Below are positions 10,000 through 25,457 of a stretch of 64,000 nucleotides of DNA, one piece after another. Below the pieces are notes generated by a model, which saw nothing but the letters and a program-made list of their open reading frames with translations, was not told where the DNA came from and ran no database searches. Location of the stretch: the NCBI GenBank assembly GCA_048885925.1, contig JBHLLG010000004.1:19503-83502 (forward strand), written 5' to 3'. Within the stretch, counting starts at the first letter, position 1. The number at the start of each line of letters is the position of its first letter. The translations under genes were made by a program, and so were the position numbers. Source of the stretch: Candidatus Hermodarchaeota archaeon. Lineage in GTDB: Archaea; Asgardarchaeota; Lokiarchaeia; Sigyniarchaeales; SOKP01.

Positions 10000-11355
10000 A
10001 TGTCCTTACCTTTACAAATTTTTGTCATTCTTTGTTTTGCTGTCATTATAATTGCTCTTTTCCGCGAAAAAACTGATTTTTTAGCATATAGTATAGTGTC
10101 TATGTTAGCTGCAGGTACAGCTACATATCTTTTTTCACCAACTAAAATACAAATTGAGGACTTTTTTCAGGCAATAGACTGGACTGTAATTTTTTTTTTA
10201 ATTTCAATGTTTACTATTGTAGCAATATTAGAGGATAAACATATTTTTAATGAAATTGCATTACGAATAACTAAAAAATTCCATACTAACACCCGAAGGT
10301 TTTTTTGGGTAATTTGTTTAATTTCAACATTATCCGCTGCCTTTATTGAAGATATTTCAGTTGCAGTAATTTTTATTCCCATGATAATAAATACTAGCCA
10401 AAAAATGCGAATTAATCCTACTCCTATATTAATGGGAATGACAATTTGCATCAATCTTGCTGCTACATTGACTCCTTTTGGATCTGCTCAAAATATTTTA
10501 ATTGCCGATAAATTTGGTTTAACTTCAATCTGGTTTTTTGTTAACTTAGGATTATATTTTATTTTTACAGTTTTTATAACACTATTTCTACTAGATAAAT
10601 TTTTTCTTAAAAAGCATTTAAAAGAAATTTGGGATCCATATTGCGATGAATTTGGAGTACCAATACCTCAAAAATATATAAAAGAGCACGAATTAATAAT
10701 CATGGAGAATTCCATTAACTCCAAAGCGTTTTATAAAAATTTATTTGCTTTGTTAATATTATTTGCCTTATTAATTCTTATACCAAATATTTTATTTGTA
10801 GGTCTTTTTGGAATGTTGCTTTTTGTTTTTATTAACCCCCGATTAAAAGAATCGGGGAGAAAGCAACCAGATATATCTCATTACCTCAAAAAAGTAGACT
10901 TTAAGCTAATCTTTTTCTTTATATGTTTATTTGTTTTAGTCTATTGTTTTGAGGTTACTGGAATTATTGGTATTATTGAAGAATTTATAAATTTCATTGC
11001 TCCAGAACATATTTTTTTATTATCTATCTTCGTTTTAGTCTTTACATCTATTCTTTCTGGATTTCTTGACAATGTCCCTGTGACAGTAATTTTTATCCCA
11101 GTTATACATCTATTAGTTTCTTCTGGATTTTCCGCTGCACCTCTCTTAATTGCATTTATATTAGGTATTAATTTAGGAGGTAATTTCTTACCTCAAGGAT
11201 CCGCAGCAGACATGATGACTTTAGAACTTTCTACTAAATATTGTGTTGATGGTATGAATTATAAGAGACTATTGAAAATAGGAGGTTTATTTGCGTTATT
11301 TCACATTATATTAGGAATTGTTTATCTTGCTGTAATCACTTTCTTATTTTACTAA
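10000..11355 (+). CDS. Polytopic anion/ion permease, ArsB/NhaD (CitMHS-like) superfamily
   Basis: 451 aa and highly hydrophobic, with two repeated halves separated by a hydrophilic loop. Family assignment is by overall pattern only. Confidence 0.55.
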   Translation: MSLPLQIFVILCFAVIIIALFREKTDFLAYSIVSMLAAGTATYLFSPTKIQIEDFFQAIDWTVIFFLISMFTIVAILEDKHIFNEIALRITKKFHTNTRRFFWVICLISTLSAAFIEDISVAVIFIPMIINTSQKMRINPTPILMGMTICINLAATLTPFGSAQNILIADKFGLTSIWFFVNLGLYFIFTVFITLFLLDKFFLKKHLKEIWDPYCDEFGVPIPQKYIKEHELIIMENSINSKAFYKNLFALLILFALLILIPNILFVGLFGMLLFVFINPRLKESGRKQPDISHYLKKVDFKLIFFFICLFVLVYCFEVTGIIGIIEEFINFIAPEHIFLLSIFVLVFTSILSGFLDNVPVTVIFIPVIHLLVSSGFSAAPLLIAFILGINLGGNFLPQGSAADMMTLELSTKYCVDGMNYKRLLKIGGLFALFHIILGIVYLAVITFLFY

Positions 11356-11389
11356 ATTTGCTTTAATTTTGAAATAGAGGTATTAAAAG

Positions 11390-11938
11390 TTGGCAAAAAA
11401 CAAAGCAATAATTTTGGATAGAGATGGAACATTAATTGAAGATAAGGATTATGCTTATAAAGTCGAAGATTTTGAATTATTACCCGGAGTTATTGAAGGG
11501 TTAAGATTACTTAGCAATCTATTTCTCCTTTTTATAGTAACCAATCAATCAGGTATAGGAAGAGGTTATTATACTATTCAAGATTTTCATAATTTTAATA
11601 ATCATTTATTAAAGACTTTAAAAAGTGAAAAAATTAACATTCTAAAAACTTATTTTTGTCCTCATATAAGAAAAGATAATTGTGAATGTCGAAAACCTAA
11701 AACTAAATTTATTGATGATATAATTAATGAATTTGATATTGATACTAAAAGATCATGGATGATTGGTGATCATCCATCAGATATAGAATTTGGTATAAAT
11801 GCTGGTTGTAAAACGATTTTCCTTACTACCGGACATGGCGATAAACACATAGATGAATTAGAAACTCTTGGAATAAAGCCAACTATGATATGTAATAATT
11901 TTTTAGAAGCCGCAAAACAAATTCTAAAGAATTCTTAA
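11390..11938 (+). CDS. gmhB: HAD-IIIA phosphatase, GmhB / histidinol-phosphatase-like
   Basis: DRDGTLIED, TNQSGIGRGY, Zn motif CPH...CECRKPK, MIGD. TTG start. Confidence 0.8.
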   Translation: MAKNKAIILDRDGTLIEDKDYAYKVEDFELLPGVIEGLRLLSNLFLLFIVTNQSGIGRGYYTIQDFHNFNNHLLKTLKSEKINILKTYFCPHIRKDNCECRKPKTKFIDDIINEFDIDTKRSWMIGDHPSDIEFGINAGCKTIFLTTGHGDKHIDELETLGIKPTMICNNFLEAAKQILKNS

Positions 11939-12027
11939 GTCTTAACTCTTATAAGAGATTATTATAAAAGTACAGGATGATACTATTATATCATAATTAG
12001 ATGTAAGAATATAATGTCATTCTAGTA

Positions 12028-12516
12028 ATGTTCTTTAAGAAATTAAATAATGCTGGTTTATGGGATAAAATTCAAAAGTTACGGGAATTAATTAAGGTCG
12101 AACAGCATTTTAAGAAAAGAATATGCTGGAATTGTAAGAAAGATTTGAATATTTATGATTTTCTTAGTGATAATGTTAATTTAACTCCCGAATATATTCT
12201 AAGATTATGGCAAACACACATTTTAGAGTTTCATTGTTGTGAATGTTTTAGATATCTTAAAATCCATGAATTAAAGAACATTGAAAAAGAGTTGAGTGAA
12301 AGAAATTGTTTATTTTGTGAAACTCCAATGGATATATATAAGTTTAGTAAATTCCATAGTTATTTGAAAATTCATGAGATCAAAGCTCTATGGTTAGATA
12401 CAAATTTTCAAGTTTTTTGCGATAACTTATGCCAACGCAAATATTATAAAACTTATTACGATTTTCTTAACAAAAGGAAATTAGAAAAACAGAACCAATT
12501 AAAAAATAAAAATTAG
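12028..12516 (+). CDS. Hypothetical Cys-rich protein with two zinc-ribbon-like modules
   Basis: Internal repeat CWNCKK...CCECFRYLKIHELK and CLFCET...YLKIHEIK...CDNLC. No family recognised. Confidence 0.4.
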   Translation: MFFKKLNNAGLWDKIQKLRELIKVEQHFKKRICWNCKKDLNIYDFLSDNVNLTPEYILRLWQTHILEFHCCECFRYLKIHELKNIEKELSERNCLFCETPMDIYKFSKFHSYLKIHEIKALWLDTNFQVFCDNLCQRKYYKTYYDFLNKRKLEKQNQLKNKN

Positions 12517-12548
12517 AAATAAAAAATTAATATTTTTAAGATTTTCTT

Positions 12549-13727
12549 TTAATTTCTCTTTTTCCCAAGAAAAGGCATAGCATGCTCATACTGTTTCATA
12601 ACAAATCGTGAGATAACAATTCTTTGAATCTCACTTGTTCCTTCATAAATTTGATAGAGTTTTGCATCTCTAAATAATTTCTCGACAGGATATGTCCTTA
12701 AGTAACCATAACCCCCAAATATTTGAACTGCTTCCGTTGTTACGTTCATAGCGACATCCGAAGCGAAAGCTTTAGCTATTGAGGAACTCAAATTATTATC
12801 CATACCTTGATCAGCTTCCCATGCTGCTTTATAAGTCAATAACCGAGCAGCTTCAATATCTTTATACATGTTAGCTATTTTTTCTTGAATAACTTGATAA
12901 TTTCCAATTGGTCTTCCAAAAGCTTCTCTCTTTTGAGCATAATCGAGAGAATATTCCATCGCGGAACGAGCACAACCACATGCAAACGCACCTATTGCAG
13001 GGCGAGTATGAGCAAATGTTTGCATAGCCAAAACAAATCCTCTTCCTGGTTTAGCTAGAATATTTTCTTTTGGGATCCTTACATCTTTTAAACCAACTGA
13101 TACCGTGTTTGACGATCTTTGACCTAATTTAGGGATATGTTTACCTAATCTTACTCCTTCGCTTTTCGTATCTACAATAAAAGCTGCGATCCCTTTATGT
13201 TTTTTTTCAGGATCTACAGTCGCAAACACGGTAATATAATCAGCAAATCCTCCGTTAGTAATCCAAAACTTATTTCCATTTAATATAAATTCATCTCCAT
13301 CTTTTTCTGCTAGACATTTCATTCCAGCAACATCAGAACCCATCGTTGGTTCAGATGTAGCAAAAGCAATCAATTTAAACTCATTAACTAATTCACTTAA
13401 AATCCTTTTTTTTTGCTCTTCATTCCCTCCTATAACAATAGGTTCAGCACCTAGGTTATTATCAAAGATTGAAGTTGCAATTCCAGGACATGCCGAAGAT
13501 ATTTCCTCAACAACAAGACAGGAGCTTAATAAACCAAGGCCAGGACCACCATACTCTTTGGGTATTCCTAAATTTAATAATTTTTCCTCCCAAGCTTTTT
13601 TAATAACTGGTAATGGAAATTCTTCAGATTCATCATATTTTTGCGCTACTGGTAAAACTTCGCGAATTGCAAACTCTCTTGCTTTTTTTTGTAATGCTTT
13701 TTGCTCCTCATTTAGCATGAAATCCAT
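12549..13727 (-). CDS. Acyl-CoA dehydrogenase (short/medium-chain type)
   Basis: Full-length ACAD pattern: FATSEPTMGSDVAG, KFWITNGG, QIFGGYGY, YEGTSEIQR. Confidence 0.9.
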   Translation of the reverse strand: MDFMLNEEQKALQKKAREFAIREVLPVAQKYDESEEFPLPVIKKAWEEKLLNLGIPKEYGGPGLGLLSSCLVVEEISSACPGIATSIFDNNLGAEPIVIGGNEEQKKRILSELVNEFKLIAFATSEPTMGSDVAGMKCLAEKDGDEFILNGNKFWITNGGFADYITVFATVDPEKKHKGIAAFIVDTKSEGVRLGKHIPKLGQRSSNTVSVGLKDVRIPKENILAKPGRGFVLAMQTFAHTRPAIGAFACGCARSAMEYSLDYAQKREAFGRPIGNYQVIQEKIANMYKDIEAARLLTYKAAWEADQGMDNNLSSSIAKAFASDVAMNVTTEAVQIFGGYGYLRTYPVEKLFRDAKLYQIYEGTSEIQRIVISRFVMKQYEHAMPFLGKKRN

Positions 13728-13743
13728 TATTATTTCTCTCCTT

Positions 13744-14949
13744 TTACCCCATTTTCTTTATTAATTTATCCACAATATTCTTAAAGTCCAAATCTTCTGG
13801 TCTTGGAACAAATTTTATTTCGATTATTTCTTCCATCACATCAATTTTAGCAGCTTTCATTAATTCAACAATTTCTTTTACTGCTCCTCCACCCCAACCA
13901 TATGAACCAAAAGCCAACCCAACTTTATTCATTGGCTTTAAACCTTTTTGATAAGATAAGTATTCTGCAACAGTTGGATATAATCCGTTATTTAGGGTAG
14001 GACTTCCAACTAAGATAGCTTTAGCTTTCATAGCCTCCGTAATTACATCTGAATAGTCAGCATTAGTTAATCTATACCTTTTTACTGGAATTCCTCGAAG
14101 TTTAATTTCATTTGTTAATGCTTTAGCTATTTTTGCAGTACTTTCCCACATTGAATCGTATACAATGAGGACGCTTTTTACATCAATTTCTCCCTTACTC
14201 CATTTTGTATATCTCTCCAATATCTCTGGAATATGACTTCTCCAACAAATCCCGTGAGATGTACAAATAACTTCAATTGGTAAGGATCCAACTTTAGGTA
14301 AAGCTTTTGCTATTAACCCAGAAAGATGTTGTAATATATTGGCATAATATTTCTCTGCTTCTTGAAACACTTCACTAAGATCATTTTCATCATCCCAACG
14401 TTTTGATGTTGCATAATGTTGTCCAAATGCATCATTTGAAAACAATACATTTTTACCATGCTCATCACTCATAAAAGAGACCATAGAGTCAGGCCAGTGT
14501 ATCATAGGAATAGGTACAAATGTAAATTTCTTACCATTTCCAATGTCTAAAGTATCTCCTTCCTCAACAGCTCTAATTCTTTTAAATAATTCATCATCTA
14601 CTTCGTCATGATAATGAGCTTTTAATATATCAACCCCTCGCTTCGAAGCAATTAGCTCGGCATTAGGAAGATACTTAATAATTAATGGAAATGACCCAGA
14701 ATGATCCATCTCAACGTGATTTGTTATAAAATAATCAATCTCAGAAGGATCACATATTTCTTTAATATTATGTAAAAAATATTCAAAGTAAGGACGCTTA
14801 ATAGTATCAATCAATACTGTTTTTTTTCCTTTTACAATATATGCATTATAAGAACTAGCTCGATGTGTAGAATATCCATGGAAATTTCTCACTTCCCAAT
14901 CTACATAACCAACATAATAGATATCTTTCATCATTTCTAAATGTTCCAT
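13744..14949 (-). CDS. fprA: Flavodiiron protein (FprA / rubredoxin:oxygen oxidoreductase type)
   Basis: Metallo-beta-lactamase-like diiron motif HVEMDHSGS plus a C-terminal flavodoxin domain (ILVGSPTLNNG). Confidence 0.9.
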   Translation of the reverse strand: MEHLEMMKDIYYVGYVDWEVRNFHGYSTHRASSYNAYIVKGKKTVLIDTIKRPYFEYFLHNIKEICDPSEIDYFITNHVEMDHSGSFPLIIKYLPNAELIASKRGVDILKAHYHDEVDDELFKRIRAVEEGDTLDIGNGKKFTFVPIPMIHWPDSMVSFMSDEHGKNVLFSNDAFGQHYATSKRWDDENDLSEVFQEAEKYYANILQHLSGLIAKALPKVGSLPIEVICTSHGICWRSHIPEILERYTKWSKGEIDVKSVLIVYDSMWESTAKIAKALTNEIKLRGIPVKRYRLTNADYSDVITEAMKAKAILVGSPTLNNGLYPTVAEYLSYQKGLKPMNKVGLAFGSYGWGGGAVKEIVELMKAAKIDVMEEIIEIKFVPRPEDLDFKNIVDKLIKKMG

Positions 14950-15097
14950 TTCAATTTCACCTTTTTATAATAGGATTTGATAATTATTTCGTAATAGTAA
15001 TTCAAATCAAATTAAAAACTTATATTCTATTTATTATAAAATTTTTTTAGAAATTTTGCAATGAAAAAAAAATTAAAAAGAAGTAAGATTTTATAGA

Positions 15098-15235
15098 TTA
15101 TTCGATTTTCTCAAACAGATCCTTTCCCACACCACAAACAGGACAAGTCCAGTCATCTGGTAAATCTTCAAACTTGGTTCCCTCAGCTTCTTCATCATAC
15201 ACATATCCGCAAGCTTGACATTCCCATTTTCCCAT
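15098..15235 (-). CDS. rub: Rubredoxin (45 aa, below ORF-track size cut-off)
   Basis: Hand translation gives [45 protein letters not shown]. Canonical CxxCG...CPxCG with the DLPDDW motif. Confidence 0.85.
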
Positions 15236-15494
15236 CAATATCACTTTCACTTAATTTTAAGTTGTACTATATAATTTTATGGATTGTAATTGAATGTATA
15301 TAAAAAATATTAATTTAATATTTTATAAATATAAAACTATTCTTTTAGTGTTTCTAATTTAGGTTTTTTATTGATATTCGGGGTATAATCTATTGTTCTT
15401 CCTTAGAAAATCACAAAATTTTATGATTAAATTAATTAAATTAGATAAGAATTAGATTTATCTATTTTTATAAATAATGTTTTTTTTCATTTTA

Positions 15495-15644
15495 CTATTT
15501 TGGTAATTCTTTTTTAAGGAAGAAATTTTTTGATGATCTGCATTTTGGGCAACTATAATCATCGCTTACCTGTTCAAATGGAACTTCCCTTTCTTCATCA
15601 ATATAAAGGTAATTACATCTTCTACAACGGTATATAGGAATCAA
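15495..15644 (-). CDS. Rubredoxin-like small zinc-ribbon protein (49 aa)
   Basis: Hand translation gives (TTG)IPIYRCRRCNYLYIDEEREVPFEQVSDDYSCPKCRSSKNFFLKKELPK. Rubredoxin spacing of CxxC...CxxC. It lies 12 nt downstream of the NROR stop. Only a TTG start is available. Confidence 0.5.
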   Translation of the reverse strand: MIPIYRCRRCNYLYIDEEREVPFEQVSDDYSCPKCRSSKNFFLKKELPK

Positions 15645-15655
15645 TAATCATCTCT

Positions 15656-16999
15656 TTATTCTTTTCTTTTATACCTACTTTTAGAAGCACCACATTCACA
15701 TTTAAAATCGTCTGGGAGATCCTTAAAAAGAACGTCCATTTTAATTTCATCGTATTCTTTGCCACAATTTTCACATTTATAAACATATAATTCTAATAAT
15801 TTTCTCAATTCATCTCTATCTACATCTTGTTCCATCTTTTTATTAACATATGAATTAGCTTTAGTTTCTCCAAATAAAATTGCTCCTTTAAGTTTATTAT
15901 CTTTTAAAATTATTTTTTGGTAGCAACAGTCTTTTTTATCTGCTTTTTTTAATATTTCCCATCCTCCACCATGTTCTTTTGAAGGATCGATTACCCCAAT
16001 TGAAGTTAAATCAAGACCTACAATTTTCAAAGTGTTCTTAGGAGTGGTTCCTTCATACTTTACTTTTTTTGCTCCAAGTACAGATGCTGCTACTATTTTT
16101 GATTGCTCCATACATGCTGGAATAATACCCCATATCTGATTTTTATATTCTATGCAATCTCCAACAGCGAATATATCTTTTATATTAGTCTCTAAGAATT
16201 CATTTACAATAATACCTCTGTTTGTTTCAATATTTGCATCTTTAGCGATATCTATTGTTGGGGTAATTCCGGCTTGTATTAAAACAAGATCTGCTTCTAA
16301 TTTCTTTCCACCTTTTAACTTTATTCCAGAAACTTTCCCATCTCCGAGGATTTCCTCTGTTACCGCATCTAAAACCACCATTATTCCTCTATTTTCAATT
16401 TCTTCTTTTAACATAGTACCACATTCAGCATCTAATTGCCTGGGAAGCAATTGAGGAAAAAATTCAACTACAGTTGTATCTAACTTACAAAATTTTATTT
16501 GGTTTGCCAATTCTAAACCAAGTAATCCGCCTCCAATTATAATAGCCTTCTTAACTTCATTTTTTTTAATATGATTTTTTATTTCAAGCGCATCATCAAT
16601 ATTTCGTAGTGTAAATACTCCTTTTTTGTTAATATTCATTTCAATTGCATTTTTAATTGGAGGTATATTTGGAGTACTACCTAAAGCTAAAATTAACTTA
16701 TCATATCCAATAGAATTATTTTCTCCATTGAGATATATTTCTTTAACCTTAGGATCAATGCTATTAACTTTTTTATTTAAATATAAATTCAATTCTTTAT
16801 TTTTATACCAATCTTCTTTGAAAACAATTAAATCTTCAATCTTTACATTATCGGAGATTAATTCGGGTAATTTAACTCGAGTATAATATGGATAGCTCTC
16901 TTGAGTATAAATTTCAATTTCAACATGATTATTAAGATAACGGATATTTTGAGCGGTAAAGGTACCCGCTACATTATTCCCTATTATAATAACTTTCAT
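15656..16999 (-). CDS. NAD(P)H:rubredoxin oxidoreductase-like FAD protein with C-terminal rubredoxin-like domain
   Basis: KVIIIGNNVAGT (FAD), AIIIGGGLLGLELA (NAD), AVGDC. The C-terminus has YKCENCGKEY...LPDDFKCECG. Confidence 0.85.
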   Translation of the reverse strand: MKVIIIGNNVAGTFTAQNIRYLNNHVEIEIYTQESYPYYTRVKLPELISDNVKIEDLIVFKEDWYKNKELNLYLNKKVNSIDPKVKEIYLNGENNSIGYDKLILALGSTPNIPPIKNAIEMNINKKGVFTLRNIDDALEIKNHIKKNEVKKAIIIGGGLLGLELANQIKFCKLDTTVVEFFPQLLPRQLDAECGTMLKEEIENRGIMVVLDAVTEEILGDGKVSGIKLKGGKKLEADLVLIQAGITPTIDIAKDANIETNRGIIVNEFLETNIKDIFAVGDCIEYKNQIWGIIPACMEQSKIVAASVLGAKKVKYEGTTPKNTLKIVGLDLTSIGVIDPSKEHGGGWEILKKADKKDCCYQKIILKDNKLKGAILFGETKANSYVNKKMEQDVDRDELRKLLELYVYKCENCGKEYDEIKMDVLFKDLPDDFKCECGASKSRYKRKE

Positions 17000-17156
17000 A
17001 GAATAATTAGTTTATACATCTTATTTTAAAGTTTTCTTTATATATTGTAATCTCAAATTATATTCTTTATGAACAAGTTCTAAATCAAATTTAAATCAAA
17101 ATGAATTATAATTTAAATTAATTAATTTTAAAAAAACTGTAAAAAAGTGGTAATTT

Positions 17157-19093
17157 ATGAAAAACGATAGAATTTCTTATCATAAGTCTGTTCAAAAAGC
17201 TTATGAAAGACTTAAAAAAGATGGCATGAATAACATTTGGGATCGCTTTGAAGCACAAGGATTTGGAGGTGTCCCTGATAAGCGATGTCCATTTTGCTTA
17301 AAAGGAGCTCGCTGTGATTTATGCTCTAATGGTCCATGTAGAGCAGATTCCTCAATTGATAAACATGGTGTATGTGGTATTACTGCAGATGGGATGGCTA
17401 TGCGGATGATGCTCCTTAGAAATGTTATGGGTGCATCTACTTACCATTATCATACTGAAACGACTTTGAAGACCTTAAAGGCAACGGTAGAAGGTCAAAC
17501 TCCATTTAAAATTGCTGAACCTGATAAATTGAAAAGTTTTACCGAACGATTAGGGTTGGATACATCTGGTTCAGAGAAAGAAATTGCATTAAGCCTATAT
17601 AACTTTGTAAAGGAAGATTTCAATAGATCCTATGATGAACCAAGTAAAATTGTAGAGAAATTAGCACCACTTGAAAGACAAGAAGTATGGAAAAAATTAG
17701 GAATTTTTCCAGGTGGACTATATGGCGAAATGATGTTCTCAACAAGCTCTTGCCTTACAAATGTAGATGGATATTATGCAAGTTTAGCTCTCAAAGCAAT
17801 GAGACTTGGGATTGCGATGGCTTACCAAAGCCAAATTGTCAATGAATTCACTCAGGATATTTTATTTAATATTCCCAGACCTCATATTATGAGAGTGAAT
17901 CTTGGGGTATTAGACCCAGATTATGTAAATGTACTCCCTAATGGCCATGAACCATTCTTAGGGTTTGCAATGGTTCAACTTGCACGTAAATCTGAATGGC
18001 AAGAAAAAGCAAAAGCCGTTGGTGCAAGAGGTCTAAGAATAATCGCAAATATTGAAACTGGGCAGGAAATGATACAAAGATGGGAAATGGATGATGTATT
18101 TTATGGATTTACGGGAAATTGGATCATGCAAGAAGCAATTTTGGCAAGTGGTTGTATTGATGCTTTTGTTTGTGATATGAATTGCTGTATGCCAATTGAT
18201 CCTATATATGCAAAAAAATATAAATTCAAATTAGTCCCAGTCTCTGAAGTTGTAGCCTTTGAGGGCATAACTGAAAGAGTAGATTATAAACCCGATAAAG
18301 GTGAAGAACAAGCTGCAATGTTACTACAAATGGCAATAGATAATTTTAAGGAGCGCAGAGCAAACATAGAACCTATTACTGGTTTAGATATGAATGAAGC
18401 AGTAGTTGGTTTTTCAAGTGAAAGTATTGTTGCAGCTCTCGGAGGTACACTTGGACCATTACTCGATCTAATAAAGAATGGAACTATACGAGGAGTTGCT
18501 GGATTAATATCATGCACAACGCTTAGGGATTATGGACAAGATGTACATACAATTGACGTGGCTAAAGAATTAATTAAACGAGACATTTTGGTATTATCAA
18601 TGGGGTGCGGTAATGGTGCATTACAAGTTGGAGGATTATGTTTACCAGAAGCTAAAGACTTGGCAGGTCCCGGTCTTAAAGCAGTTTGTGAAAAACTTGG
18701 AATTCCTCCAGTTCTTAGCTATGGAACATGTACAGATACAGGGAGAGTTGCTGATTTATTAGGCTCAATTTCCGCTGCACTTGGCGGAGTCCCAATTCCA
18801 GATTTACCCGTTGTAGCTGCAGCTCCAGAATATATTACTAATATTTTCTAGATTAGTAAGTTCCAATGGAGCAAAAAGCGTCGATAGATGCTCTCTTCGC
18901 ACTGGCTTTCGGATTATATACCTACGTAAATCCTGTTCTCACAATCACGGGCGGTGCAGATTTAATGAAGTTATTAACTGAAGACTTGAAGCATCTCACA
19001 GGTGGAGTATTACATATGGAACTTGACACAAAAGAAGCGATAGAGAATATGTTAAAGCATATTGAAGCAAATAGGAAGAAGTTAGGTATTTAA
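17157..19093 (+). CDS. cooS: CooS-family (Ni-CODH / CooS-V-like) protein, interrupted; proposed join(17157..18833,18866..19093)
   Basis: N-terminal Cys cluster CPFCLKGARCDLCSNGPCRA...GVCGITA. C-cluster-region motifs NGHEP, CDMNCCMP, GLISCTT, SMGCGNG, YGTCTDTGR. The C-terminal 75 aa (MEQKASIDA...TGGVLHMELD) lie in another frame, 32 nt downstream of APEY. Confidence 0.85.
18834..18865 (+). other. Putative BHB (bulge-helix-bulge) intron, 32 nt, within the cooS-like gene
   Basis: Outer helix 18822-27/18867-72 (6 bp); bulge CAA 18864-66; 4-bp helix 18828-31/18860-63; bulge AUA 18832-34; inner 8-bp helix 18835-42/18852-59; 9-nt loop carrying the TAG. Excision restores the frame. 18835..18866 gives the identical product. 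Confidence 0.6.
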
Positions 19094-19583
19094 AATCAAA
19101 TTTCTAAATAATTAATTTTTTTTTTTCATTTTCTTTTTTCTTTAATTTTGGTTTTTGCGGTAATTATTTACAAAATCATCAACTTATTGCTGCGAATCAC
19201 CATAGAATTTATAGATGACTTTATCTTTAGAATATTCTTTTTCAACTCGAAGACTTAACTCTCTAGCTTCGAACTCAAGCATTTCTTTACTCTATTCGGT
19301 AATATAAGTGGAAAAATTCCTTCCTTTTGAAATAACACATAAATAGTGAGGGTGTATAAGAAGTTCATCTCCATCAATATTTCGATAGCGGCATCACTAC
19401 CCTTCAGACGGTGATGGAGATGGAGAAGTTGCCATCAATGGATATAATGTAATGCTAATGTTCAGTATTATAACTGGGATTAGTTTCCTTTTAATTAAGA
19501 AATTAAAGCACAAATAAATTTCTAAAATTTTTTTTCCTATTTTCTTAAGAAGATGTTATTTATACTAAATTTTTAAACTTCCC

Positions 19584-21065
19584 CTAATTATATTTAAATT
19601 TCTTGCTTTCTTGATATCCTGTTCCAATTATTTTACCAATTTTATAATAACGATTATCTAATGCGTAGATAATTGGATCTAATTTTGTCATATCTGCAAT
19701 TGTCTGGTCTTCTTCGCTTTTAATCACAAAATCTTTACTAACATAAGATTGTACAACATCTCCAATAAAAATCTGTCTATGCTGAATTGAGAATTCCTTG
19801 ATAACTTTGCATTCTAAATTCACAGGGCATTCCCGAATCATGGGTGCTGTATTTAGGTCACCATAGAAAATTTTAAATAGTTGTGACTTATCCACCTCTT
19901 TTCCAGATACTACACCGCAATAATCAGTTTTTACCAGAAGCTGAGTTGTTGGAAAATTAATACTAAAGGTTCTTTGTTCGAGAATTCCTTGATTTGTATA
20001 ATGATCTTGACCTGATGAAATGTAAACAAGAGGAGGTTTAATACCCATTATTCCGACGTCTCCCAATGTCTCAAAATTAGGTTGATTATTAACAAGTGCT
20101 CCAGCAAGAATGATCGGGACAGGATAAACTAAAGGAACTTTTCCAAATTTAACTTTTTCAGCAGAGGATAATGTTTTTATGATGAAATTATCCATTTGAT
20201 TTATTAGCCAACTTTTCAAAGGATCTTGAATGGGAACCTTTTTAAGATCTTCTGGATCCTCATAACGAGCTGTAATCAATTTATTAACATTTTTAGCTCG
20301 ATAAACAAATGGGCAATTGTAATATAGATTTAATGGATAATTGTAATCAAAAGGGAGTTCATAAAGTTCAATTCTTTCCATGGTCGAGAGAATCACACCT
20401 GATAAGATTGCTTGATGGATGAAAATAGCATAAATGTAGTTCTTATTGTAATAATCGTTAAAACATTGTTCATTATATAATTCTCTATAAGAATTCCACC
20501 ATGATTGAAGTAGTCCTTTCTCTGGTCTAACAATCAAACAACCCGCATTAAAATAAGGTCGAATCTTGTTATGGTCAACATGTGTTTTCATTGGAAAAAT
20601 CTGTTCTTTAGAGATATTACATTTTTGATACACTTGTTCCCAAAATGGATCCATTGGTTCATCATAGAATGACCCAATATTGACGTGATGAACTGGTCGA
20701 TAACCTAAATTCTTATCATCATCTAAAATGAAGTGTTTTGGCTCATTAAAAATAATTGTATTTGAACCAAGCCATGCAAGAAGTCTTGCTTTTTTTTTTG
20801 CTAATGATTCAGCCTTTGCAGCAGCAAAAACATAGTTAATAAAGGGAAATTTTGGCTCATCCTCAGTTGCAAAAGGAATAAGATCAACATTCAGTGATAA
20901 AAATAAATTTTTTAGCTCTTTATTGATATTCTCTTCCAATTCTGGGATTAACACCCAAATTGGATAATCTGATAAAGATTCTCCAAATTTACGAATACTT
21001 GCTGCAAGGATTAGATCTTTTGGGTCTGAACAATCAGAGATATAAGCAAAAATTAATTTTTCCAT
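19584..21065 (-). CDS. Two-domain protein: unknown N-terminal domain (~300 aa) fused to flavin reductase-like (flavoredoxin/HpaC-type) FMN-binding domain
   Basis: The C-terminal ~190 aa follows the flavin-reductase split-barrel pattern (PVPIILAGA...NFETLGDVGIMG...FSINFPT...CPVNLECKV). The N-terminal part has no motif I recognise. Confidence 0.6.
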   Translation of the reverse strand: MEKLIFAYISDCSDPKDLILAASIRKFGESLSDYPIWVLIPELEENINKELKNLFLSLNVDLIPFATEDEPKFPFINYVFAAAKAESLAKKKARLLAWLGSNTIIFNEPKHFILDDDKNLGYRPVHHVNIGSFYDEPMDPFWEQVYQKCNISKEQIFPMKTHVDHNKIRPYFNAGCLIVRPEKGLLQSWWNSYRELYNEQCFNDYYNKNYIYAIFIHQAILSGVILSTMERIELYELPFDYNYPLNLYYNCPFVYRAKNVNKLITARYEDPEDLKKVPIQDPLKSWLINQMDNFIIKTLSSAEKVKFGKVPLVYPVPIILAGALVNNQPNFETLGDVGIMGIKPPLVYISSGQDHYTNQGILEQRTFSINFPTTQLLVKTDYCGVVSGKEVDKSQLFKIFYGDLNTAPMIRECPVNLECKVIKEFSIQHRQIFIGDVVQSYVSKDFVIKSEEDQTIADMTKLDPIIYALDNRYYKIGKIIGTGYQESKKFKYN

Positions 21066-21444
21066 TTAAAAACCAAGCTCATATTATTTCATTTTAAAAT
21101 GAATATTAAAACACTAATTAGTAATTAAATTATTCTGATGAATTAAATTCATTAATGAATATCATAAAAAAAGAAAATAATGAACTTATTCTTCTAGTTA
21201 AATCTTTTTAATCTTATCAATTAAAGCTGGAATGGGTTCTTGTAGATCTCCAAATATCCCATAATAAGCCCAATTAAAGATAGATATTTTTAGATTATTT
21301 ATCCGAGATATAGATTACCAATTATAGAAGATTTGAATCTCTTGAAATTCATTTTTTATATAATATGTATTTTAAATTCATTTCAATTTCTATTTGAACA
21401 TGTTCGAAATTAAAAATATATAATGACTGCCTTTTCATTTAATC

Positions 21445-22230
21445 ATGACTGAAGCAAAACAATATAAAATAGTAAAAAGAAAAATAATTAAGATCGATGA
21501 AGATCTGTGTACAGGATGCGGAAATTGTGTAGTTGATTGTGCAGAAGGAGCTTTAAAAGTAATTGATGGAAAAGCTAGGGTTATAAATGAAATATTCTGC
21601 GATGGTCTTGGTGCATGCATTTCTGGGTGTCCTGAGGGTGCACTTGAAATAATCGAAAGAGAGGCTTTAGAGTTTGATGAGGAAGCTGTGGAAAAACATT
21701 TAGAATCCATGAAAGATAACAAATCTGCTGAAACTGAACAAATAAAGCAAATTGTTTCTGAACATGCCCACCAATGTGGTTGTCCTTCTGCTCAAACAAT
21801 GGTTTTTGACGAACCTGAGGTACAATCTGAAGTTGCAGGAAAGATACCTTCAGCTCTACGACAGTGGCCTGTTCAAATGCACTTAATCAATCCACGAGCT
21901 CCATATTATCAAGGTGCAGATGTTCTTCTTTCAGCTGACTGTGTAGGATTTTCATATGGAGATTTTCATAGAGACTTCTTGAAGCATAAATCCATTGCTA
22001 TTGCATGTCCTAAGCTTGATCAAGGAAAAGAAGTCTACATTGAAAAAATTAAATCTTTAATAGATGATGCTAAAATTAACACACTTACAGTTACCATTAT
22101 GGAAGTGCCCTGCTGTGGAGGACTATTAGCCTTAGCTCAAGAAGGCGCTAAGAGAGCAACCCGAAAAGTTCCTATAAAATATATGGTTGTAGGGATTCAA
22201 GGAAATATAATAAAAGAAGAATGGATCTAA
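21445..22230 (+). CDS. 4Fe-4S dicluster domain protein with conserved Cys-containing C-terminal domain
   Basis: CTGCGNCVVDCAEGAL and CDGLGACISGCPEGAL ferredoxin motifs. C-terminal part has ADCVGF, ACPKLDQ, VPCCGG. Confidence 0.75.
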   Translation: MTEAKQYKIVKRKIIKIDEDLCTGCGNCVVDCAEGALKVIDGKARVINEIFCDGLGACISGCPEGALEIIEREALEFDEEAVEKHLESMKDNKSAETEQIKQIVSEHAHQCGCPSAQTMVFDEPEVQSEVAGKIPSALRQWPVQMHLINPRAPYYQGADVLLSADCVGFSYGDFHRDFLKHKSIAIACPKLDQGKEVYIEKIKSLIDDAKINTLTVTIMEVPCCGGLLALAQEGAKRATRKVPIKYMVVGIQGNIIKEEWI

Positions 22231-22247
22231 TTTTTTTTTAATAATTT

Positions 22248-22901
22248 TTATTTTTTAAGCAAAACTTTTTTCTTAATGATTTTTCTTAACATTACTGATA
22301 AAGCTGCCTTAGATTTCCCTATTTGGTTAGCTAATTCTTCTAATGAAATCTTTCGAGGAACTTCGAAAAATCCTGAAGTGATGGCTTTATCGAGAATACT
22401 CAATTCATCATAAGTCAATTTGTTTTTATCATTTTCAAGGATGTATGGGGAAACACCAATCCTTAATAATTCAAAATCAATTCTTTTTTGTTCAAAAAGA
22501 GTTAATAGCTGATCTATCCGTTCTCTACTTGCTATCAACCTCCAATAAGCAAATCCCTCTTCAACTCTTACGGGAAAGTCTACAAGAACACCACACTTTA
22601 TTATGGCATACAACAAATAAGGATCCTTTGTTTTAACATTGAATTTAACTCGACTTTCTTCCTTTTCTATGATATTCAGTTCAAAAACTGAGGGATGATT
22701 TCTAACTTGTTCAAGAATAGAATCAATATTATAATGCAGAATTTCAATTACACTGTTACCAATAGATTTTTCAAGATCATAAGGAAGAAAATGTGAAATC
22801 TCCATCTTGATATCAGGAAAATTTTTGAAAATTTCAGAAATCCATATTTGTTCTGGAAACTTAATCTTTATTCTTGCTAAGCTTGGTTTTTCCGTAGCCA
22901 T
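22248..22901 (-). CDS. Bat-like HTH-10 family transcriptional regulator
   Basis: C-terminal LTYDELSILDKAITSGFFEVPRKISLEELANQIGKSKAALSVMLRK matches the archaeal HTH_10 (bacterio-opsin activator type) pattern. Confidence 0.7.
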   Translation of the reverse strand: MATEKPSLARIKIKFPEQIWISEIFKNFPDIKMEISHFLPYDLEKSIGNSVIEILHYNIDSILEQVRNHPSVFELNIIEKEESRVKFNVKTKDPYLLYAIIKCGVLVDFPVRVEEGFAYWRLIASRERIDQLLTLFEQKRIDFELLRIGVSPYILENDKNKLTYDELSILDKAITSGFFEVPRKISLEELANQIGKSKAALSVMLRKIIKKKVLLKK

Positions 22902-22987
22902 CTTGAAATATTAATGTTTAAGATTTTAAAACTTTATTTTTATACATAATGATTAATTATTAATAAAAACAATTTAAATGCATTATT

Positions 22988-23587
22988 ATGGTAGAAAAGA
23001 AGAATTTATTACTTGGAATATCTGGTAGCCCAAGAAAACAGGGGACTGAATATGCTATCCAATATGCTTTAAATTATGCTGCTGAAAAGTTTGGATTTGA
23101 AACGGAATTTTGGACTGTCAGAAATAAGGATATTAAGTTTTGTCTACATTGTGATTATTGCATTCGAGAAAAAAAGGGGTGTGTAAATAAAGATGATATG
23201 GAGGAACTCTATACTAAATTAGAACAAGCTAATTTTTTTCTGTTTGGAACTCCTGTTTTCCAAGGAAACTTATCAGGACAAATTAAAACCGTTTTAGATC
23301 GATGTCGTGCAATGGTCGCTAAAACTCCCAACGTATTCAAGAATAAAATTGGAGCAGCACTAGCTGTTGGGGGAGATCGAAGTGGAGGACAAGAAATTGC
23401 AATTAGAGGTATTTTAGATTTTTTTCAACAAAATCATATAATAAGTGCTTCTGGTGGTGCTTTTGGGGCTAATTTAGGTGCTAGTCTGTGGAGTAGAGAT
23501 ATGGGAAAAGAAGGGATTGAAAAAGATGAAGAAGGTTTACGCACCATCCGAAAGGTAATAAAAAGATTAGTAGAATTTAAAAAATAA
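22988..23587 (+). CDS. Iron-sulfur flavoprotein (Isf) / NADPH-dependent FMN reductase family
   Basis: GISGSPRKQGT flavodoxin-like start and the compact Cys motif CLHCDYCIREKKGC typical of Isf. Confidence 0.8.
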   Translation: MVEKKNLLLGISGSPRKQGTEYAIQYALNYAAEKFGFETEFWTVRNKDIKFCLHCDYCIREKKGCVNKDDMEELYTKLEQANFFLFGTPVFQGNLSGQIKTVLDRCRAMVAKTPNVFKNKIGAALAVGGDRSGGQEIAIRGILDFFQQNHIISASGGAFGANLGASLWSRDMGKEGIEKDEEGLRTIRKVIKRLVEFKK

Positions 23588-23637
23588 TATTGAATTTTCC
23601 TAATTTATATTTAAATTAGAATTTTTGTATTCAAATA

Positions 23638-24108
23638 ATGGAGAATGTGAAAGAAAAACAAAAAAAAAAGAAGTATCAGATAAAGATTCTTTTGTTAATA
23701 GAATCAATTTTATTGATTATAGGGATATCATTTACAATGATCTCTAATATCTTGGACAATGAGTCAATTTTTCATAAATTATGTGGAGTTACATCCGGAT
23801 TAATTCTTTTTATATTTATAACCACTTGTGTTTTTTATATAGACATTAGATCACCAGAAGAAGTGAAAGTACCAATTGATAAGAAGAAAAATTTAACAAA
23901 AAATATTATTGTTGCAACTCTAGTCTTTAGCGGATTTGGACTAATGATAATAACAGTATATTTAAATATTTTTATCGAAGATCATCCAACTATTGCTCAA
24001 TTTTGTTCTTATGGAGGGGAACTGGGTTTTATTATTATGATTTCTGGATATGTTTTAGCGATAATTCTTTTTATAGAAAAACCAAAAAAAGAAAAACCAA
24101 AAGAATAA
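23638..24108 (+). CDS. Hypothetical membrane protein (about 4 TM)
   Basis: Hydrophobic segments flanked by Lys-rich termini. No family recognised. Confidence 0.4.
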   Translation: MENVKEKQKKKKYQIKILLLIESILLIIGISFTMISNILDNESIFHKLCGVTSGLILFIFITTCVFYIDIRSPEEVKVPIDKKKNLTKNIIVATLVFSGFGLMIITVYLNIFIEDHPTIAQFCSYGGELGFIIMISGYVLAIILFIEKPKKEKPKE

Positions 24109-24149
24109 ATAAAGAATTAGATAAAAAATTTCAATGTATTTAAAAAAAT

Positions 24150-24443
24150 CTATTTCACTCCGAATAATTTTTTTGCTTCTTTTTCTCTAAGACCAGAAAC
24201 ACCCCAGAGTTCTTTAAACCAATATTTTCCTTTATGTATTACCACTGGTGTGTTCACAATACATCCATCAACATCACAGAAGGTTTTTAGAAAGTTGTCA
24301 TCATGTAATAGCTCATGTACAAATTCCTCATCATTTATGTCTCGTTCAATATATCTAACTTCATTCTTATTTAACCAGTCCTTTAGATCATGACAAAGGT
24401 GACAGTCCTCTTTTGTTATTACGATAGGTGTTTTAGCTTCCAT
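24150..24443 (-). CDS. Glutaredoxin/NrdH-like small thioredoxin-fold protein
   Basis: CHLC active-site motif near the N-terminus in a 97-aa protein with a TPVV...G cis-Pro region. Confidence 0.65.
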   Translation of the reverse strand: MEAKTPIVITKEDCHLCHDLKDWLNKNEVRYIERDINDEEFVHELLHDDNFLKTFCDVDGCIVNTPVVIHKGKYWFKELWGVSGLREKEAKKLFGVK

Positions 24444-24656
24444 ATTAAAAAGATAACTAAAAATAATAAAAAAGCTTTTTCTTCTGAATTATAAATTGTA
24501 TAAGGTAAAATTGATTAGTTAAAAAATTTTAAAATAAATCTTATTGAAATTAAAAATAAACCATGAATTTTTACTTTTTTTTTACTTCATTTTCGAATAA
24601 ATTTAATAAATTATTATAATTAGATTCTTATTTCTTATTCTTATTTTTATCTTAAG

Positions 24657-25106
24657 ATGGATCAAAAAACTCGGAATGAAGTATTTAATAGTCATATAAA
24701 AATACTATTTCATAGTACTGATTGGAAAGAAAGAGCATTCGCAGCGCAAAATCTTGGTCAATTAGGAGAAGCTAGGGCGACTAATATGTTAACAAGAGCT
24801 TTAAAGTCTGAAAAAGATGCTGGTGTCATTAATCAAATTATTAAAGCGATGGGTGAGATTGGTGATTCAAAAGCTACTATGATAATAATAGATTATTTGA
24901 AAAAAGAATTGGAAAAACCCGAAAAAGAACAAGATAAAACGAGGCTATTTATTATCTTAGAGAGTCTTATGAAAATTGGAGATAAGCGAGCGCTTGAACA
25001 TTTAGGAATACTATTAGATTCTTGTCATAGTGATATTAGAAAACTCACAGAAGAGGCTTTTGATTGTATCGATCCAAAATGGAAACTTAATATTAAATCC
25101 ATTTAA
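24657..25106 (+). CDS. HEAT-repeat (PBS-lyase-type) protein
   Basis: Repeated R.AA..LG.LGD..A...L pattern (AAQNLGQLGEARA, KAMGEIGDSKA, LMKIGDKRA). Confidence 0.7.
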   Translation: MDQKTRNEVFNSHIKILFHSTDWKERAFAAQNLGQLGEARATNMLTRALKSEKDAGVINQIIKAMGEIGDSKATMIIIDYLKKELEKPEKEQDKTRLFIILESLMKIGDKRALEHLGILLDSCHSDIRKLTEEAFDCIDPKWKLNIKSI

Positions 25107-25144
25107 TTCAAAAATTTTTTAAAAAATGAGGAGAAAATAAAAGT

Positions 25145-25456: not shown

Positions 25457-25457
25457 G

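Follow-up and report, generated by a model that had tools for sequence, protein, structure and literature searches.

A Promethearchaeota gene of probable CooS-V type split by a predicted bulge-helix-bulge intron

The gene at positions 17157-19093 of the window (the whole 64,000-nt stretch of DNA analysed, from a Promethearchaeota MAG with 29% GC) probably encodes a prismane/CODH-family protein of CooS-V type (clade D) without a working Ni,Fe CO dehydrogenase function, and is probably split by a bulge-helix-bulge (BHB) intron. The enzyme is a new member of a group already described; what stands out is the intron.

Coding layout of the cooS-V gene

The first-pass annotation gave the gene as the interval 17157-19093 and mentioned no interruption. 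The motifs that it quoted are all there, but the interval is no continuous reading frame. The interval has 1937 nt, which is no multiple of three, and its reading frame is broken by a 32-nt insert at 18834-18865, with 559 and 75 codons on either side.

17157-18833, + strand: exon 1, comprising codons 1-559 of the CooS-V-type gene; it ends in ...AAAPEY
18834-18865, + strand: 32-nt predicted intron of the hBHBh' type; read-through adds ITNIF and a TAG stop
18866-19093, + strand: exon 2, 75 codons and a stop, first residues Met560-Glu561

The stop codon of ORF A is the TAG at 18849-18851, and the first base of ORF B is 18866. Exon 1 matches the Pfam Prismane profile at positions 3-458 and TIGR01702 at positions 1-548. 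It aligns with residues 4-555 of the solved structure 7B7Q, CooS-V of Carboxydothermus hydrogenoformans (HMMER, E 1.3e-176), and relatives are collinear with it from residue 1 on. Exon 2 takes up the two profiles at positions 458-512 and 547-621, respectively, and aligns end to end with residues 555-629 of 7B7Q. Joined, the exons give a 634-codon ORF that is collinear with 87 distinct uninterrupted homologous alleles, which read ...GAATAT|ATGGAG... without a break. The MEQKA sequence at the start of exon 2 is present in all loci read except one. A sequencing or assembly artefact was considered and ruled out, as DNA contigs of two studies contain the insert.

Cluster ligands and enzyme class

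The best solved match of the protein is 7B7Q, with 591 bits versus at most 337 for every other solved CODH. The positions that carry cluster ligands are as follows.

17286-17297, + strand: Cys44-Pro-Phe-Cys47, CxxC D-cluster motif, probably of the [2Fe-2S] type, aligned with CooS-V Cys38/Cys41
17313-17375, + strand: B-cluster Cys53, Cys56, Cys61 and Cys73, aligned with CooS-V C47-x2-C50-x4-C55-x12-C68; invariant
17946-17948, + strand: His264, equivalent to CooS-V His259 and CODH-II His261; invariant
18051-18056, + strand: Ile299-Glu300, at the site of CODH-II Cys294-Cys295; Glu300 corresponds to CooS-V Glu295
18183-18731, + strand: span of the cluster cysteines Cys343 (18183-18185), Cys453 (18513-18515), Cys484 (18606-18608) and Cys525 (18729-18731)
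18869-18871, + strand: Glu561 codon, second codon of exon 2, equivalent to CooS-V Glu556 (M1-E2 of ORF B lie opposite M555-E556)

The motifs quoted in the first-pass annotation were found at residues 44 (CPFC), 53 (CDLC), 262 (NGHEP), 298 (NIETGQ), 342 (NCCMP), 451 (ISCTT), 482 (MGCGNG) and 523 (GTCTD). Its central claim, a glutamate in place of a C-cluster cysteine, is confirmed by HMMER alignments to solved CODHs. The segment 'iianIEtgqemiqr' lies opposite 'vvgmCCtgnevlmr' in 6T7J, 'agiCCtgnevlmr' in 6ELQ (CODH-IV) and 'ygsIEsgqevvqr' in 7B7Q (CooS-V). From these three alignments, Glu300 occupies the position of Cys295, the Fe1 ligand. The alignments were also inspected for a cysteine at the Fe1-ligand position; Glu300 is found there, with no cysteine within 25 residues of it, and the glutamate is present in 91 of 91 relatives. 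Retention of the other C-cluster ligand contexts proved correct as well. His264 is present, as are Cys343, Cys453, Cys484 and Cys525, which lie opposite CooS-V Cys338, Cys449, Cys480 and Cys521 and are invariant; ligand positions of exon 1 in general do not vary among the 91 relatives.

At the N-terminus, the CxxC reading of the D-cluster motif stands. Cys44-x2-Cys47 lies opposite the CxxC of CooS-V, Arg52 is at the position of CODH-II Cys47, and both cysteines are invariant in 91/91 sequences. In CooS-V, the Cys295-to-Glu change is linked to a second change, Gly41-to-Cys, through which the D-cluster is a [2Fe-2S] cluster bound by CxxC (PMC9311411, Jeoung et al. 2022); Cys41 is a ligand of this bridging [2Fe-2S] cluster (PMC9311411). 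By analogy, the D-cluster of the window protein would be of the [2Fe-2S] type. The seventh CooS-V cluster ligand, Glu561 here, is part of the protein only when the two exons are joined. Its CooS-V counterpart, Glu556, coordinates the hybrid cluster, and the equivalent residue in HCP is Glu494 (PMC9311411).

CODH-II (1SU8), CODH-IV (6ELQ) and the CODH of Thermococcus AM4 (6T7J) have the fold and the B-cluster in common with the window protein, which also keeps five of the six ligand positions of their C-cluster. In contrast to their Cys-Cys, the window protein has Ile-Glu and has lost the Fe1 ligand. Where they read MHEKA or MSEKA it reads MEQKA, with a glutamate at the HCP-like ligand position, and their D-cluster motif is Cx7C whereas it has CxxC (as does the D. 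vulgaris CODH). The complete C-cluster set of a Ni,Fe-CODH, five cysteines and one histidine, is not found, the equivalent of Cys295 being Glu300. The window locus also differs from canonical CODHs in its lack of maturation genes: Pfam searches of the 18 neighbouring ORFs (10000-27000) gave no CooC-, CooJ- or CooT-like protein, and no match indicating a CooF, hydrogenase or ACS context.

The standard models name the protein differently. With TIGR01702 (NCBIfam, anaerobic CODH catalytic subunit) it scores 619 bits, above the cut-off of 478. This score and the five conserved ligand positions would suit a genuine Ni,Fe CO dehydrogenase in which Glu300 or another residue stands in for the Fe1 cysteine. 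We regard such an enzyme as very improbable. CooS-V_Ch, with an equal ligand set, contains a hybrid cluster that morphs, [4Fe-3S-nO], is inactive in both CO oxidation and CO2 reduction, and reduces NH2OH only slowly (PMC9311411). Moreover, substitution of Cys295 in CODH-II by Glu or Ala (C295E, C295A) leaves the enzyme Ni-deficient, and C295E is inactive (PMC9311411). The absence of a cysteine near Glu300 and of maturation genes among the ORFs scanned also argues against it. Finally, the genome encodes a separate, bona fide CdhA that serves carbon metabolism, as expected of clade D carriers.

The marks of CooS-V named in the first-pass annotation (Cys-to-Glu substitution, hybrid-cluster cofactor, loss of CO oxidation) agree with the published description (PMC9311411), and the window protein has both residue changes. 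The closest known system is CooS-V itself (CODH-V, CHY_RS00160, 7B7Q), with which it shares the scaffold, the Cys295-to-Glu and Gly41-to-Cys changes, the His/Cys ligands, the glutamate at 556 and the B-cluster motif. Both proteins are named CODH by standard models and both occur in genomes with another CODH. The window gene differs in its archaeal (Promethearchaeota) host and in the BHB intron beside the codon equivalent to that of Glu556. By extrapolation from this single characterised homolog, the window protein would carry a similar cofactor, have a similar activity and not turn over CO. In the literature, a physiological role for clade D has yet to be proven (PMC13056359).

As to hybrid cluster proteins, the chemistry expected of the window protein, a redox-dependent Fe/S/O cluster with glutamate ligands, would be shared with HCP classes I-III, as would a suspected role in nitrosative or oxidative stress. 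The sequence itself is firmly CooS. Within PF03063 it does not fall in the HCP branch: NCBIfam gives CooS (TIGR01702) and no HCP model, and its solved matches are all CODHs.

Structure and predicted splicing of the intron

The insert and the adjacent exon bases can be folded into a BHB made of the following elements.

18822-18827, + strand: 5' strand of outer helix h, GCTCCA (exon 1), pairing with 18867-18872, TGGAGC (exon 2)
18828-18831, + strand: exon strand of the central 4-bp helix H, GAAT, pairing with intron positions 18860-18863, GTTC
18832-18834, + strand: 5' 3-nt bulge ATA, predicted cut at 18833/18834
18835-18859, + strand: inner helix h' with a 9-nt loop; 18835-18842 pair with 18852-18859 (8 bp), loop 18843-18851
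18864-18866, + strand: 3' 3-nt bulge CAA, predicted cut at 18865/18866

The cut positions follow the rule for the canonical tRNA 37/38 BHB. Such cuts rejoin ...PEY|MEQKA... in frame (18833|18866). The layout corresponds to the definition of a BHB as a 4-bp helix flanked by two 3-nt bulges (PMC6379350; also bioRxiv 10.64898/2026.10.13.758758). The outer helix has six Watson-Crick pairs out of six and is invariant in all four alleles that contain the intron. The central helix has three Watson-Crick pairs and one G-U pair, with 15 of 16 cells paired across the four alleles; for the inner helix this is 100% of cells. The minimum free energy fold of the insert (z-score -3.7) draws the outer and inner helices. 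Note that the central 4-bp helix is missing from this nearest-neighbour fold; the putative BHB is accepted on its geometry and on comparative counts, not on energy.

The genome encodes the enzymes for such a reaction. EndA is found at C22 (198 aa, PF01974 101.7 bits, TIGR00324) and RtcB at C12 (570 bits). A point against splicing is that only one EndA homolog was found here, versus two in many Asgard genomes. Most likely, the pre-mRNA would be cut by EndA in both 3-nt bulges and then rejoined by RtcB. This predicted removal of the intron from the mRNA would join Tyr559 to Met560 in frame, with the intron located one codon upstream of Glu561. Without splicing, translation would stop after 564 residues, and the product would have neither Glu561 nor the rest of the 75 residues of exon 2.

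A stop codon and a hairpin after a take-off region might also recall translational hopping over the 32 nt, as in T4 gene 60. This can be set aside as extremely improbable. The landing codon is unlike the take-off codon (TAT, then ...TTCCA|ATG), the structure suits a BHB and not a take-off hairpin, and we know of no description of translational bypassing in archaea.

Genome-wide motif scan and a second insert

The whole genome was scanned for the strict BHB motif on both strands and at 117 lengths. Of 41,864 raw hits, 30 scored at least 20; over about 9e8 positions this gives a chance of about 3e-8 per site and length. Filtering for restoration of an ORF left 364 candidates, mostly ordinary gene-gene junctions, from which ranking by helix quality set two apart. 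These two top ORF-restoring hits are the cooS-V insert and an insert in a ferredoxin gene, also of 32 nt. The latter interrupts a codon halfway through the CxxCxxCxxxC motif, and no start codon is found at its boundary. The strict scan did not recover the EF-2 insert, whose motif is relaxed. Its hits do not coincide with the introns that ARAGORN calls in 19 of 31 tRNAs, taken as a positive control, though ARAGORN boundaries are unreliable for non-canonical Asgard introns and the control says nothing either way. A blastn-short search for a second copy of the cooS-V insert in the genome gave only short AT-rich matches, the longest of 16 nt. Thus, the insert is no repeated element in this genome.

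Distribution and evolution of the intron

Three other Asgard alleles (L053, L060 and L157) have a 32-nt insert at the same site. The comparison covers only these four alleles, two of them near-identical. Across them, 98.6% of the structure cells are paired, versus 21-47% for slid controls. Three pairs, all in the inner helix h', change on both sides, and the observed covariation score was reached in 3 of 500 shuffles. In L060, one pair of the central helix is mismatched. The read-through peptides vary among the intron alleles. All of them have the same 20 motif-forming exon bases, a set found in only 5 of the 87 intronless alleles. A pattern scan of metagenomes gave 27 loci, of which one is a cooS-V allele (L157) and the others are chance matches.

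These data bear on the possibility that the gene is split. ORF A (564 aa) and ORF B (75 aa) could be translated by termination-reinitiation, coupled by the hairpin, and associate non-covalently in a working CooS-V-type enzyme. The ATG of ORF B is indeed exactly at the exon boundary, at a conserved methionine and 14 nt downstream of the ORF A stop, and both parts are intact and under purifying selection. We nevertheless hold a split gene to be unlikely, because all alleles lack a Shine-Dalgarno-like sequence ahead of the ATG and the break would fall one residue ahead of a cluster ligand. Nor would it account for a BHB in exact register, for the compensatory changes, for a length fixed at 32 nt or for the constraint on the exon bases. 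For the ferredoxin insert, inside a codon and without a boundary start codon, it is unworkable.

The intron is missing in the closest relatives, and its carriers fall on separate branches of the gene tree. In this genome, exon 2 has diverged to an unusual degree, with about 70% nucleotide identity to relatives versus about 85% for exon 1. It is open up to the homologous stop, and its dN/dS versus relatives is about 0.065. Since dS is raised along with dN, this points to a different ancestry and not to relaxed selection. Absence of the insert from most relatives and the much higher divergence of exon 2 would also be seen in a decaying pseudogene, in which the insert would be an inert insertion or a small mobile hairpin, of fortuitously BHB-like shape, that put the gene out of function. 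Decay is, however, quite improbable in our view, less expected still than a split gene. Neither exon has any further stop or frameshift in any of the four alleles, and distant alleles share the site, the length and compensatory helix changes. The low dN/dS of exon 2 together with its raised dS, and the rarity of a strict BHB by chance, argue in the same direction.

With the intron as the preferred reading, a wider and tentative scenario, which we consider possible though doubtful, is that the 32-nt element is an mRNA intron of Promethearchaeota that is specific to its site and spreads laterally. It would have been gained or lost at least three times at the same cooS-V codon boundary, would here be accompanied by a foreign 3' exon, as in homing co-conversion, and its splicing would gate completion of the active site.

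To our knowledge, the only endonuclease-type splicing of a protein-coding mRNA in print is that of cbf5 in Crenarchaeota. The cbf5 pre-mRNA BHB intron (Watanabe 2002; Yokobori 2009, PMC2738675) is 16-44 bp long, compared with 32 here. In both cases a short endonuclease-type intron lies in the coding sequence, beside a functionally essential residue, with a patchy distribution among relatives. In contrast to the cbf5 intron, that of the window is in an Asgard genome and in a non-housekeeping gene, its length is fixed at 32 nt and its splicing is predicted. Haloferax HVO_1309 has a BHB intron in its 5'-UTR (PMC7714728).

Gene neighbourhood and proposed enzyme mechanism

The redox-stress neighbourhood described in the first-pass annotation is real, as judged from Pfam and NCBIfam matches and from rubredoxin motifs.

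13744-14949, - strand: flavodiiron protein (FprA-type), Pfam ODP/Lactamase_B and Flavodoxin_1
15098-15644, - strand: two rubredoxin-like small ORFs (15098-15250 and 15495-15644), CxxC...CPxC in their translations
15656-16999, - strand: NROR-like flavoprotein, divergent from cooS-V, Pfam Pyr_redox_2 and Rubredoxin_C, with a C-terminal rubredoxin-like CxxC...CxC
21445-22230, + strand: Fer4 and AF_0155-type 4Fe-4S protein, Pfam Fer4; its nearest atlas clusters carry PF27217 AF_0155

Against the NCBIfam flavorubredoxin models, the flavodiiron protein scores 393 bits, which is under the cut-off. An FMN reductase, glutaredoxins and a ferredoxin:thioredoxin reductase subunit are further neighbours. 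An NROR homolog adjoins cooS-V in 33 of 90 unique loci, each of which carries an Asgard or unclassified archaeon label. The Fer4-AF_0155 protein, a candidate electron-transfer partner, lies beside cooS-V in 31/90, from several phyla, and its gene is directly downstream of cooS-V in the closest relatives.

By homology with CooS-V, the enzyme would be a homodimer bridged by a [2Fe-2S] cluster on Cys44 and Cys47. Each subunit would hold a [4Fe-4S] B-cluster on Cys53, Cys56, Cys61 and Cys73 and a redox-morphing [4Fe-3S-nO] hybrid cluster, with His264, Glu300, Cys343, Cys453, Cys484, Cys525 and Glu561 as ligands. Its likely job would be the low-potential reduction of small oxidised N- or O-species. 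Homology and gene context suggest a stress reductase that may be part of an oxidative or nitrosative stress module, with electrons supplied by the neighbouring redox proteins: the Fer4-AF_0155 protein, and NROR with rubredoxin.

Implications

Under the name given by standard models, "anaerobic CO dehydrogenase catalytic subunit", this locus would be taken, wrongly, as a sign of CO metabolism in the organism. The gene belongs to the one CODH clade known to be without CO chemistry. Its linkages with NROR, rubredoxin and the flavodiiron protein in Asgard archaea, and with the Fer4-AF_0155 protein in several phyla, provide concrete partners and substrates to test.

The predicted intron lies in an Asgard metabolic gene, its structure is kept by compensatory changes and its distribution resembles that of a mobile element. 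It bears on the entry of introns into protein genes in the lineage closest to eukaryotes. Genes of this kind are mis-annotated by gene callers as truncated or frameshifted. In the tentative scenario given above, splicing by the tRNA machinery would gate the formation of a complete active site, because the intron is one codon before Glu561. If this were true, a stress enzyme would be under a post-transcriptional switch in those prokaryotes that are most closely related to eukaryotes.

Organization of the cooS-V gene

The CooS-family gene, which the first-pass annotation had taken as a single frame from 17157 to 19093, is in fact broken into two ORFs:

17157-18851, + strand: ORF A, 564 residues, C-terminal end ...AAAPEYITNIF
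18866-19093, + strand: ORF B, 75 residues, starting with MEQKASIDALF

ORF A matches the Pfam Prismane/CODH model over profile positions 3-458 and NCBIfam TIGR01702 over positions 1-548; ORF B continues both models, at positions 458-512 and 547-621, respectively. Because the coverage is consecutive in both models, ORF A and ORF B are successive parts of one gene. The two parts, named below exon 1 (17157-18833, ORF A minus its read-through tail) and exon 2 (ORF B), are separated by 32 nt (18834-18865), a length that is no multiple of three. The host assembly (G000) has 3.9 Mb, 29% GC and 181 contigs. Among public genomes, the nearest homologous loci are in MAGs labelled as Promethearchaeota (Asgard).

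CooS-V-type signatures

Residues are numbered according to the joined protein. All the motifs quoted in the first-pass annotation were found in the translation. HMMER alignments to solved structures place Ile299-Glu300 opposite the Cys-Cys pair of Thermococcus AM4 CODH (6T7J) and of CODH-IV (6ELQ), and opposite Ile-Glu295 of CooS-V from C. hydrogenoformans (CooS-V_Ch, 7B7Q), confirming the proposed Ile-Glu at the C-cluster CC pair. CooS-V 7B7Q is by far the top match (E 1.3e-176, 591 bits; runner-up 337 bits). The position of the C-cluster Fe1 ligand is held by Glu300, and inspection of the protein sequence revealed no cysteine within 25 residues of it. At the N-terminus, the CxxC-type D-cluster motif also holds: Cys44-x2-Cys47 lies opposite the CooS-V CxxC, and Arg52 stands in place of CODH-II Cys47. 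Cys53, Cys56, Cys61 and Cys73 correspond to the B-cluster motif.

The Cys295-to-Glu exchange is a synapomorphy of the CooS-V subclade and, in CooS-V_Ch, is accompanied by a Gly41-to-Cys exchange leading to a bridging [2Fe-2S] cluster (Jeoung et al. 2022, PMC9311411). The active site of CooS-V_Ch contains a hybrid cluster ([4Fe-3S] <-> [4Fe-2S-S*-2O-2(H2O)]) with His259, Glu295, Cys338, Cys449, Cys480, Cys521 and Glu556 as ligands; the enzyme neither oxidises CO nor reduces CO2, and its NH2OH reduction is slow. CODH-II carrying C295E or C295A is inactive and Ni-deficient (PMC9311411). The first-pass statement that Cys-to-Glu marks CooS-V with its hybrid-type cofactor agrees with that study, and the present protein has the same ligand set. 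His264, Glu300, Cys343, Cys453, Cys484 and Cys525 are the equivalents of the first six ligands and are invariant in 91 related sequences. ORF B residues 1-75 align with 7B7Q residues 555-629, M1-E2 being opposite M555-E556, so that the seventh ligand corresponds to ORF B residue 2 (Glu561 after joining). In canonical CODHs, this residue is His or Ser. This shared ligand set supports, at the sequence level, a CooS-V-type (clade D) hybrid-cluster protein and not a CO dehydrogenase, as first proposed, with Glu561 as a further signature. The genome also encodes a true CdhA (982 bits to TIGR00314), in keeping with the general co-occurrence of CooS-V-type genes with another CODH. A survey calls the function of CooS-V (clade D) unknown, a stress role being suspected but unproven (PMC13056359).

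Genomic neighbourhood

Three neighbours of cooS-V are considered in particular:

15656-16999, - strand: NROR-like flavoprotein (Pyr_redox_2 and Rubredoxin_C), divergent from cooS-V
19584-21065, - strand: 492-aa ORF with a flavin-reductase domain at its C-terminus only; the first ~300 residues have no family match
21445-22230, + strand: Fer4 protein of 261 aa with an N-terminal Fer4 domain (atlas clusters Fer4 and AF_0155, PF27217)

The divergent side also carries two rubredoxin-like ORFs and one flavodiiron protein. On the downstream side, the flavin-reductase-domain and Fer4 proteins are accompanied by an HTH_10 regulator, an FMN reductase, two glutaredoxin-like proteins and one ferredoxin:thioredoxin reductase subunit. 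Domain searches and sequence motifs bear out the O2/ROS-type neighbours and the divergent NROR-rubredoxin-flavodiiron string described at first, and the redox-stress setting stands. No CooC-, CooJ- or CooT-like protein was found among the scanned neighbouring ORFs. Besides the two rubredoxin ORFs downstream of it, the NROR-like protein carries a rubredoxin-like CxxC...CxC motif of its own at the C-terminus.

Neighbours were counted in 90 unique homologous loci with 1.5-kb flanks. An NROR homolog adjoins cooS-V in 33 of them, all labelled Asgard or unclassified archaeon. The Fer4 protein adjoins it in 31/90 loci, spread over Asgard lineages, Methanobacteriota, Thermoplasmatota, WOR-3 and Chloroflexota. 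As a conserved electron-transfer partner of the CooS-V-type protein, the Fer4 + AF_0155 protein is the strongest candidate. The closest relatives have the Fer4 gene directly after cooS-V; here the 492-aa ORF intervenes, and no homolog of it was found in any relative's cooS-V flank.

A 32-nt insert with bulge-helix-bulge geometry

All 29 homologs in the relatives' genomes are uninterrupted, with 635-648 codons and a continuous ...GAATAT|ATGGAG... junction. The same is true of 77 of the 79 loci with a readable junction in public genome contigs. De-duplication left 87 distinct intronless alleles. The 32 nt and their flanks form an exact hBHBh' motif (bulge-helix-bulge, BHB):

Outer helix, exon-exon: GCTCCA/TGGAGC, 6 bp
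Central helix, exon-intron: GAAT/GTTC, 4 bp including one G-U
Bulges, on opposite strands: ATA and CAA, 3 nt each
Inner helix: 8 bp, with a 9-nt loop

BHB motifs are cut between bulge nucleotides 2 and 3, after the canonical tRNA 37/38 case. The cuts predicted in this way join 18833 to 18866 and give a 634-codon ORF collinear with every homolog. A strict-motif scan of both strands of the whole genome, covering 117 intron lengths, yielded 41,864 raw hits, just 30 of them scoring at least 20 (~3e-8 per site and length tried). After filtering for ORF restoration, two hits stood clear of noise: the cooS-V insert and a second one, also of 32 nt, which interrupts a ferredoxin gene of contig C31. Both EndA, the archaeal splicing endonuclease (198 aa), and RtcB are encoded in the genome.

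A 32-nt insert at the same codon boundary is present in two Promethearchaeota MAGs (L053 and L060) and in a metagenome contig (L157). Two studies yielded DNA contigs that contain the insert, and in a co-occurring relative precisely these 32 nt are missing. It is therefore real DNA, and an assembly artefact is ruled out. Across the four aligned alleles, standard pairs make up 98.6% of structure cells, versus 21-47% with slid partners. Three inner-helix pairs have changes on both sides; the single central-helix mismatch, in L060, is at a position that is paired in L157. With no more than four alleles, two of which are near-identical, this apparent covariation is supportive rather than conclusive. 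The 20 motif-forming exon bases are identical in the three intron alleles found without reference to them, and occur in only 5/87 intronless alleles. The read-through peptides are unlike between intron alleles, so the insert is not coding.

On the comparative evidence, a 32-nt tRNA-type intron probably has to be excised before cooS-V can encode its last cluster ligand and its C-terminal domain. Inactivation of the gene by the insert is improbable: exon 2 is intact in all four intron alleles, and in G000 its dN/dS versus relatives is ~0.065. A split gene producing ORF A and ORF B as two polypeptides is slightly less improbable, but this arrangement would be unworkable for the C31 ferredoxin gene, whose insert sits inside a codon of a CxxCxxCxxxC motif. 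Splicing is thus favoured as the common explanation.

In the searchable literature, a BHB intron within a coding region is documented only for cbf5 of Crenarchaeota, and one more mRNA BHB intron lies in a 5'-UTR of Haloferax (PMC7714728, PMC2738675). A 2026 preprint on Asgard tRNA introns leaves mRNAs outside its treatment (10.64898/2026.10.13.758758).

Other interrupted genes and candidates

The second insert is the following:

C31 18957-18988, - strand (L112:1458-1489; also L113): 32 nt with strict BHB geometry, in a 185-residue 4Fe-4S ferredoxin gene

It falls in the second CxxCxxCxxxC motif, and excision restores ...KCNGCAFC-IRACDFG.... The gene is uninterrupted at 27 loci in relatives. 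In the congeners G017 (L138) and G024 (L139), 32 nt of different sequence interrupt this codon too, and the central helix is slightly relaxed. Seven inserts were thus seen in total, three in the ferredoxin gene and four in cooS-V; each is exactly 32 nt long, and their sequences differ. Paralogous ferredoxin matches with 1-2 internal TAA stops in relatives (G011:C49, G028:C60, G007:C119, G008:C71, G056:C142) may represent further mini-introns.

AORs are about 600 aa long. The split ferredoxin gene lies downstream of an AOR-like ORF (C31, L112:1801-2931, - strand) of 376 aa, which begins at the expected start of AOR domain 2; a further interruption may cut it off from its N-terminal part. An aEF-2 paralog (C2 54835-57015, - strand; L176) has one in-frame TAA within a hairpin-forming stretch, whose flanks include GCTCC...GGAGC, as at the cooS-V insert. 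A second, intact aEF-2-like gene is located on C14. Two 22-nt hairpin inserts, on C2 (+ strand, near 18450) and C1 (+ strand, near 36313), have a common ACCAAT...TTGGT core and a poor BHB register. Their excision joins long open frames of 380+284 and 79+54 codons. ARAGORN found only 31 tRNA genes in this 95%-complete genome, 19 of which appear only with introns allowed; a doubtful tRNA-Met with a 146-nt intron lies at 3161-3402 of the window (C4:22663-22904). The tRNA genes are heavily interrupted.

Intron history and ancestry of exon 2

A gene tree was built from exon 1 only. Each of the three intron-bearing genes has intronless sisters with strong support, and a single clade of intron-bearing genes is rejected (AU test, p = 0.0023). 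Thus, gain, precise loss or transfer has to be assumed three times or more. Nucleotide identity of the G000 exon 1 to its nearest relatives is ~80-95% along its length. Past the intron site, it is ~77%, 72% and 68% in three 75-nt windows to the stop codon, where the relatives share 87-90% among themselves. Against loci L032-L041, identity is about 85% up to the intron site and about 70% beyond it. In exon 2, dS is raised and dN too. From the fall in identity at the intron site and the joint rise of dS and dN, the 3' exon seems to have an ancestry different from that of the 5' exon, with a boundary at or near the intron. The intron could have been acquired together with the flanking exon by recombination.
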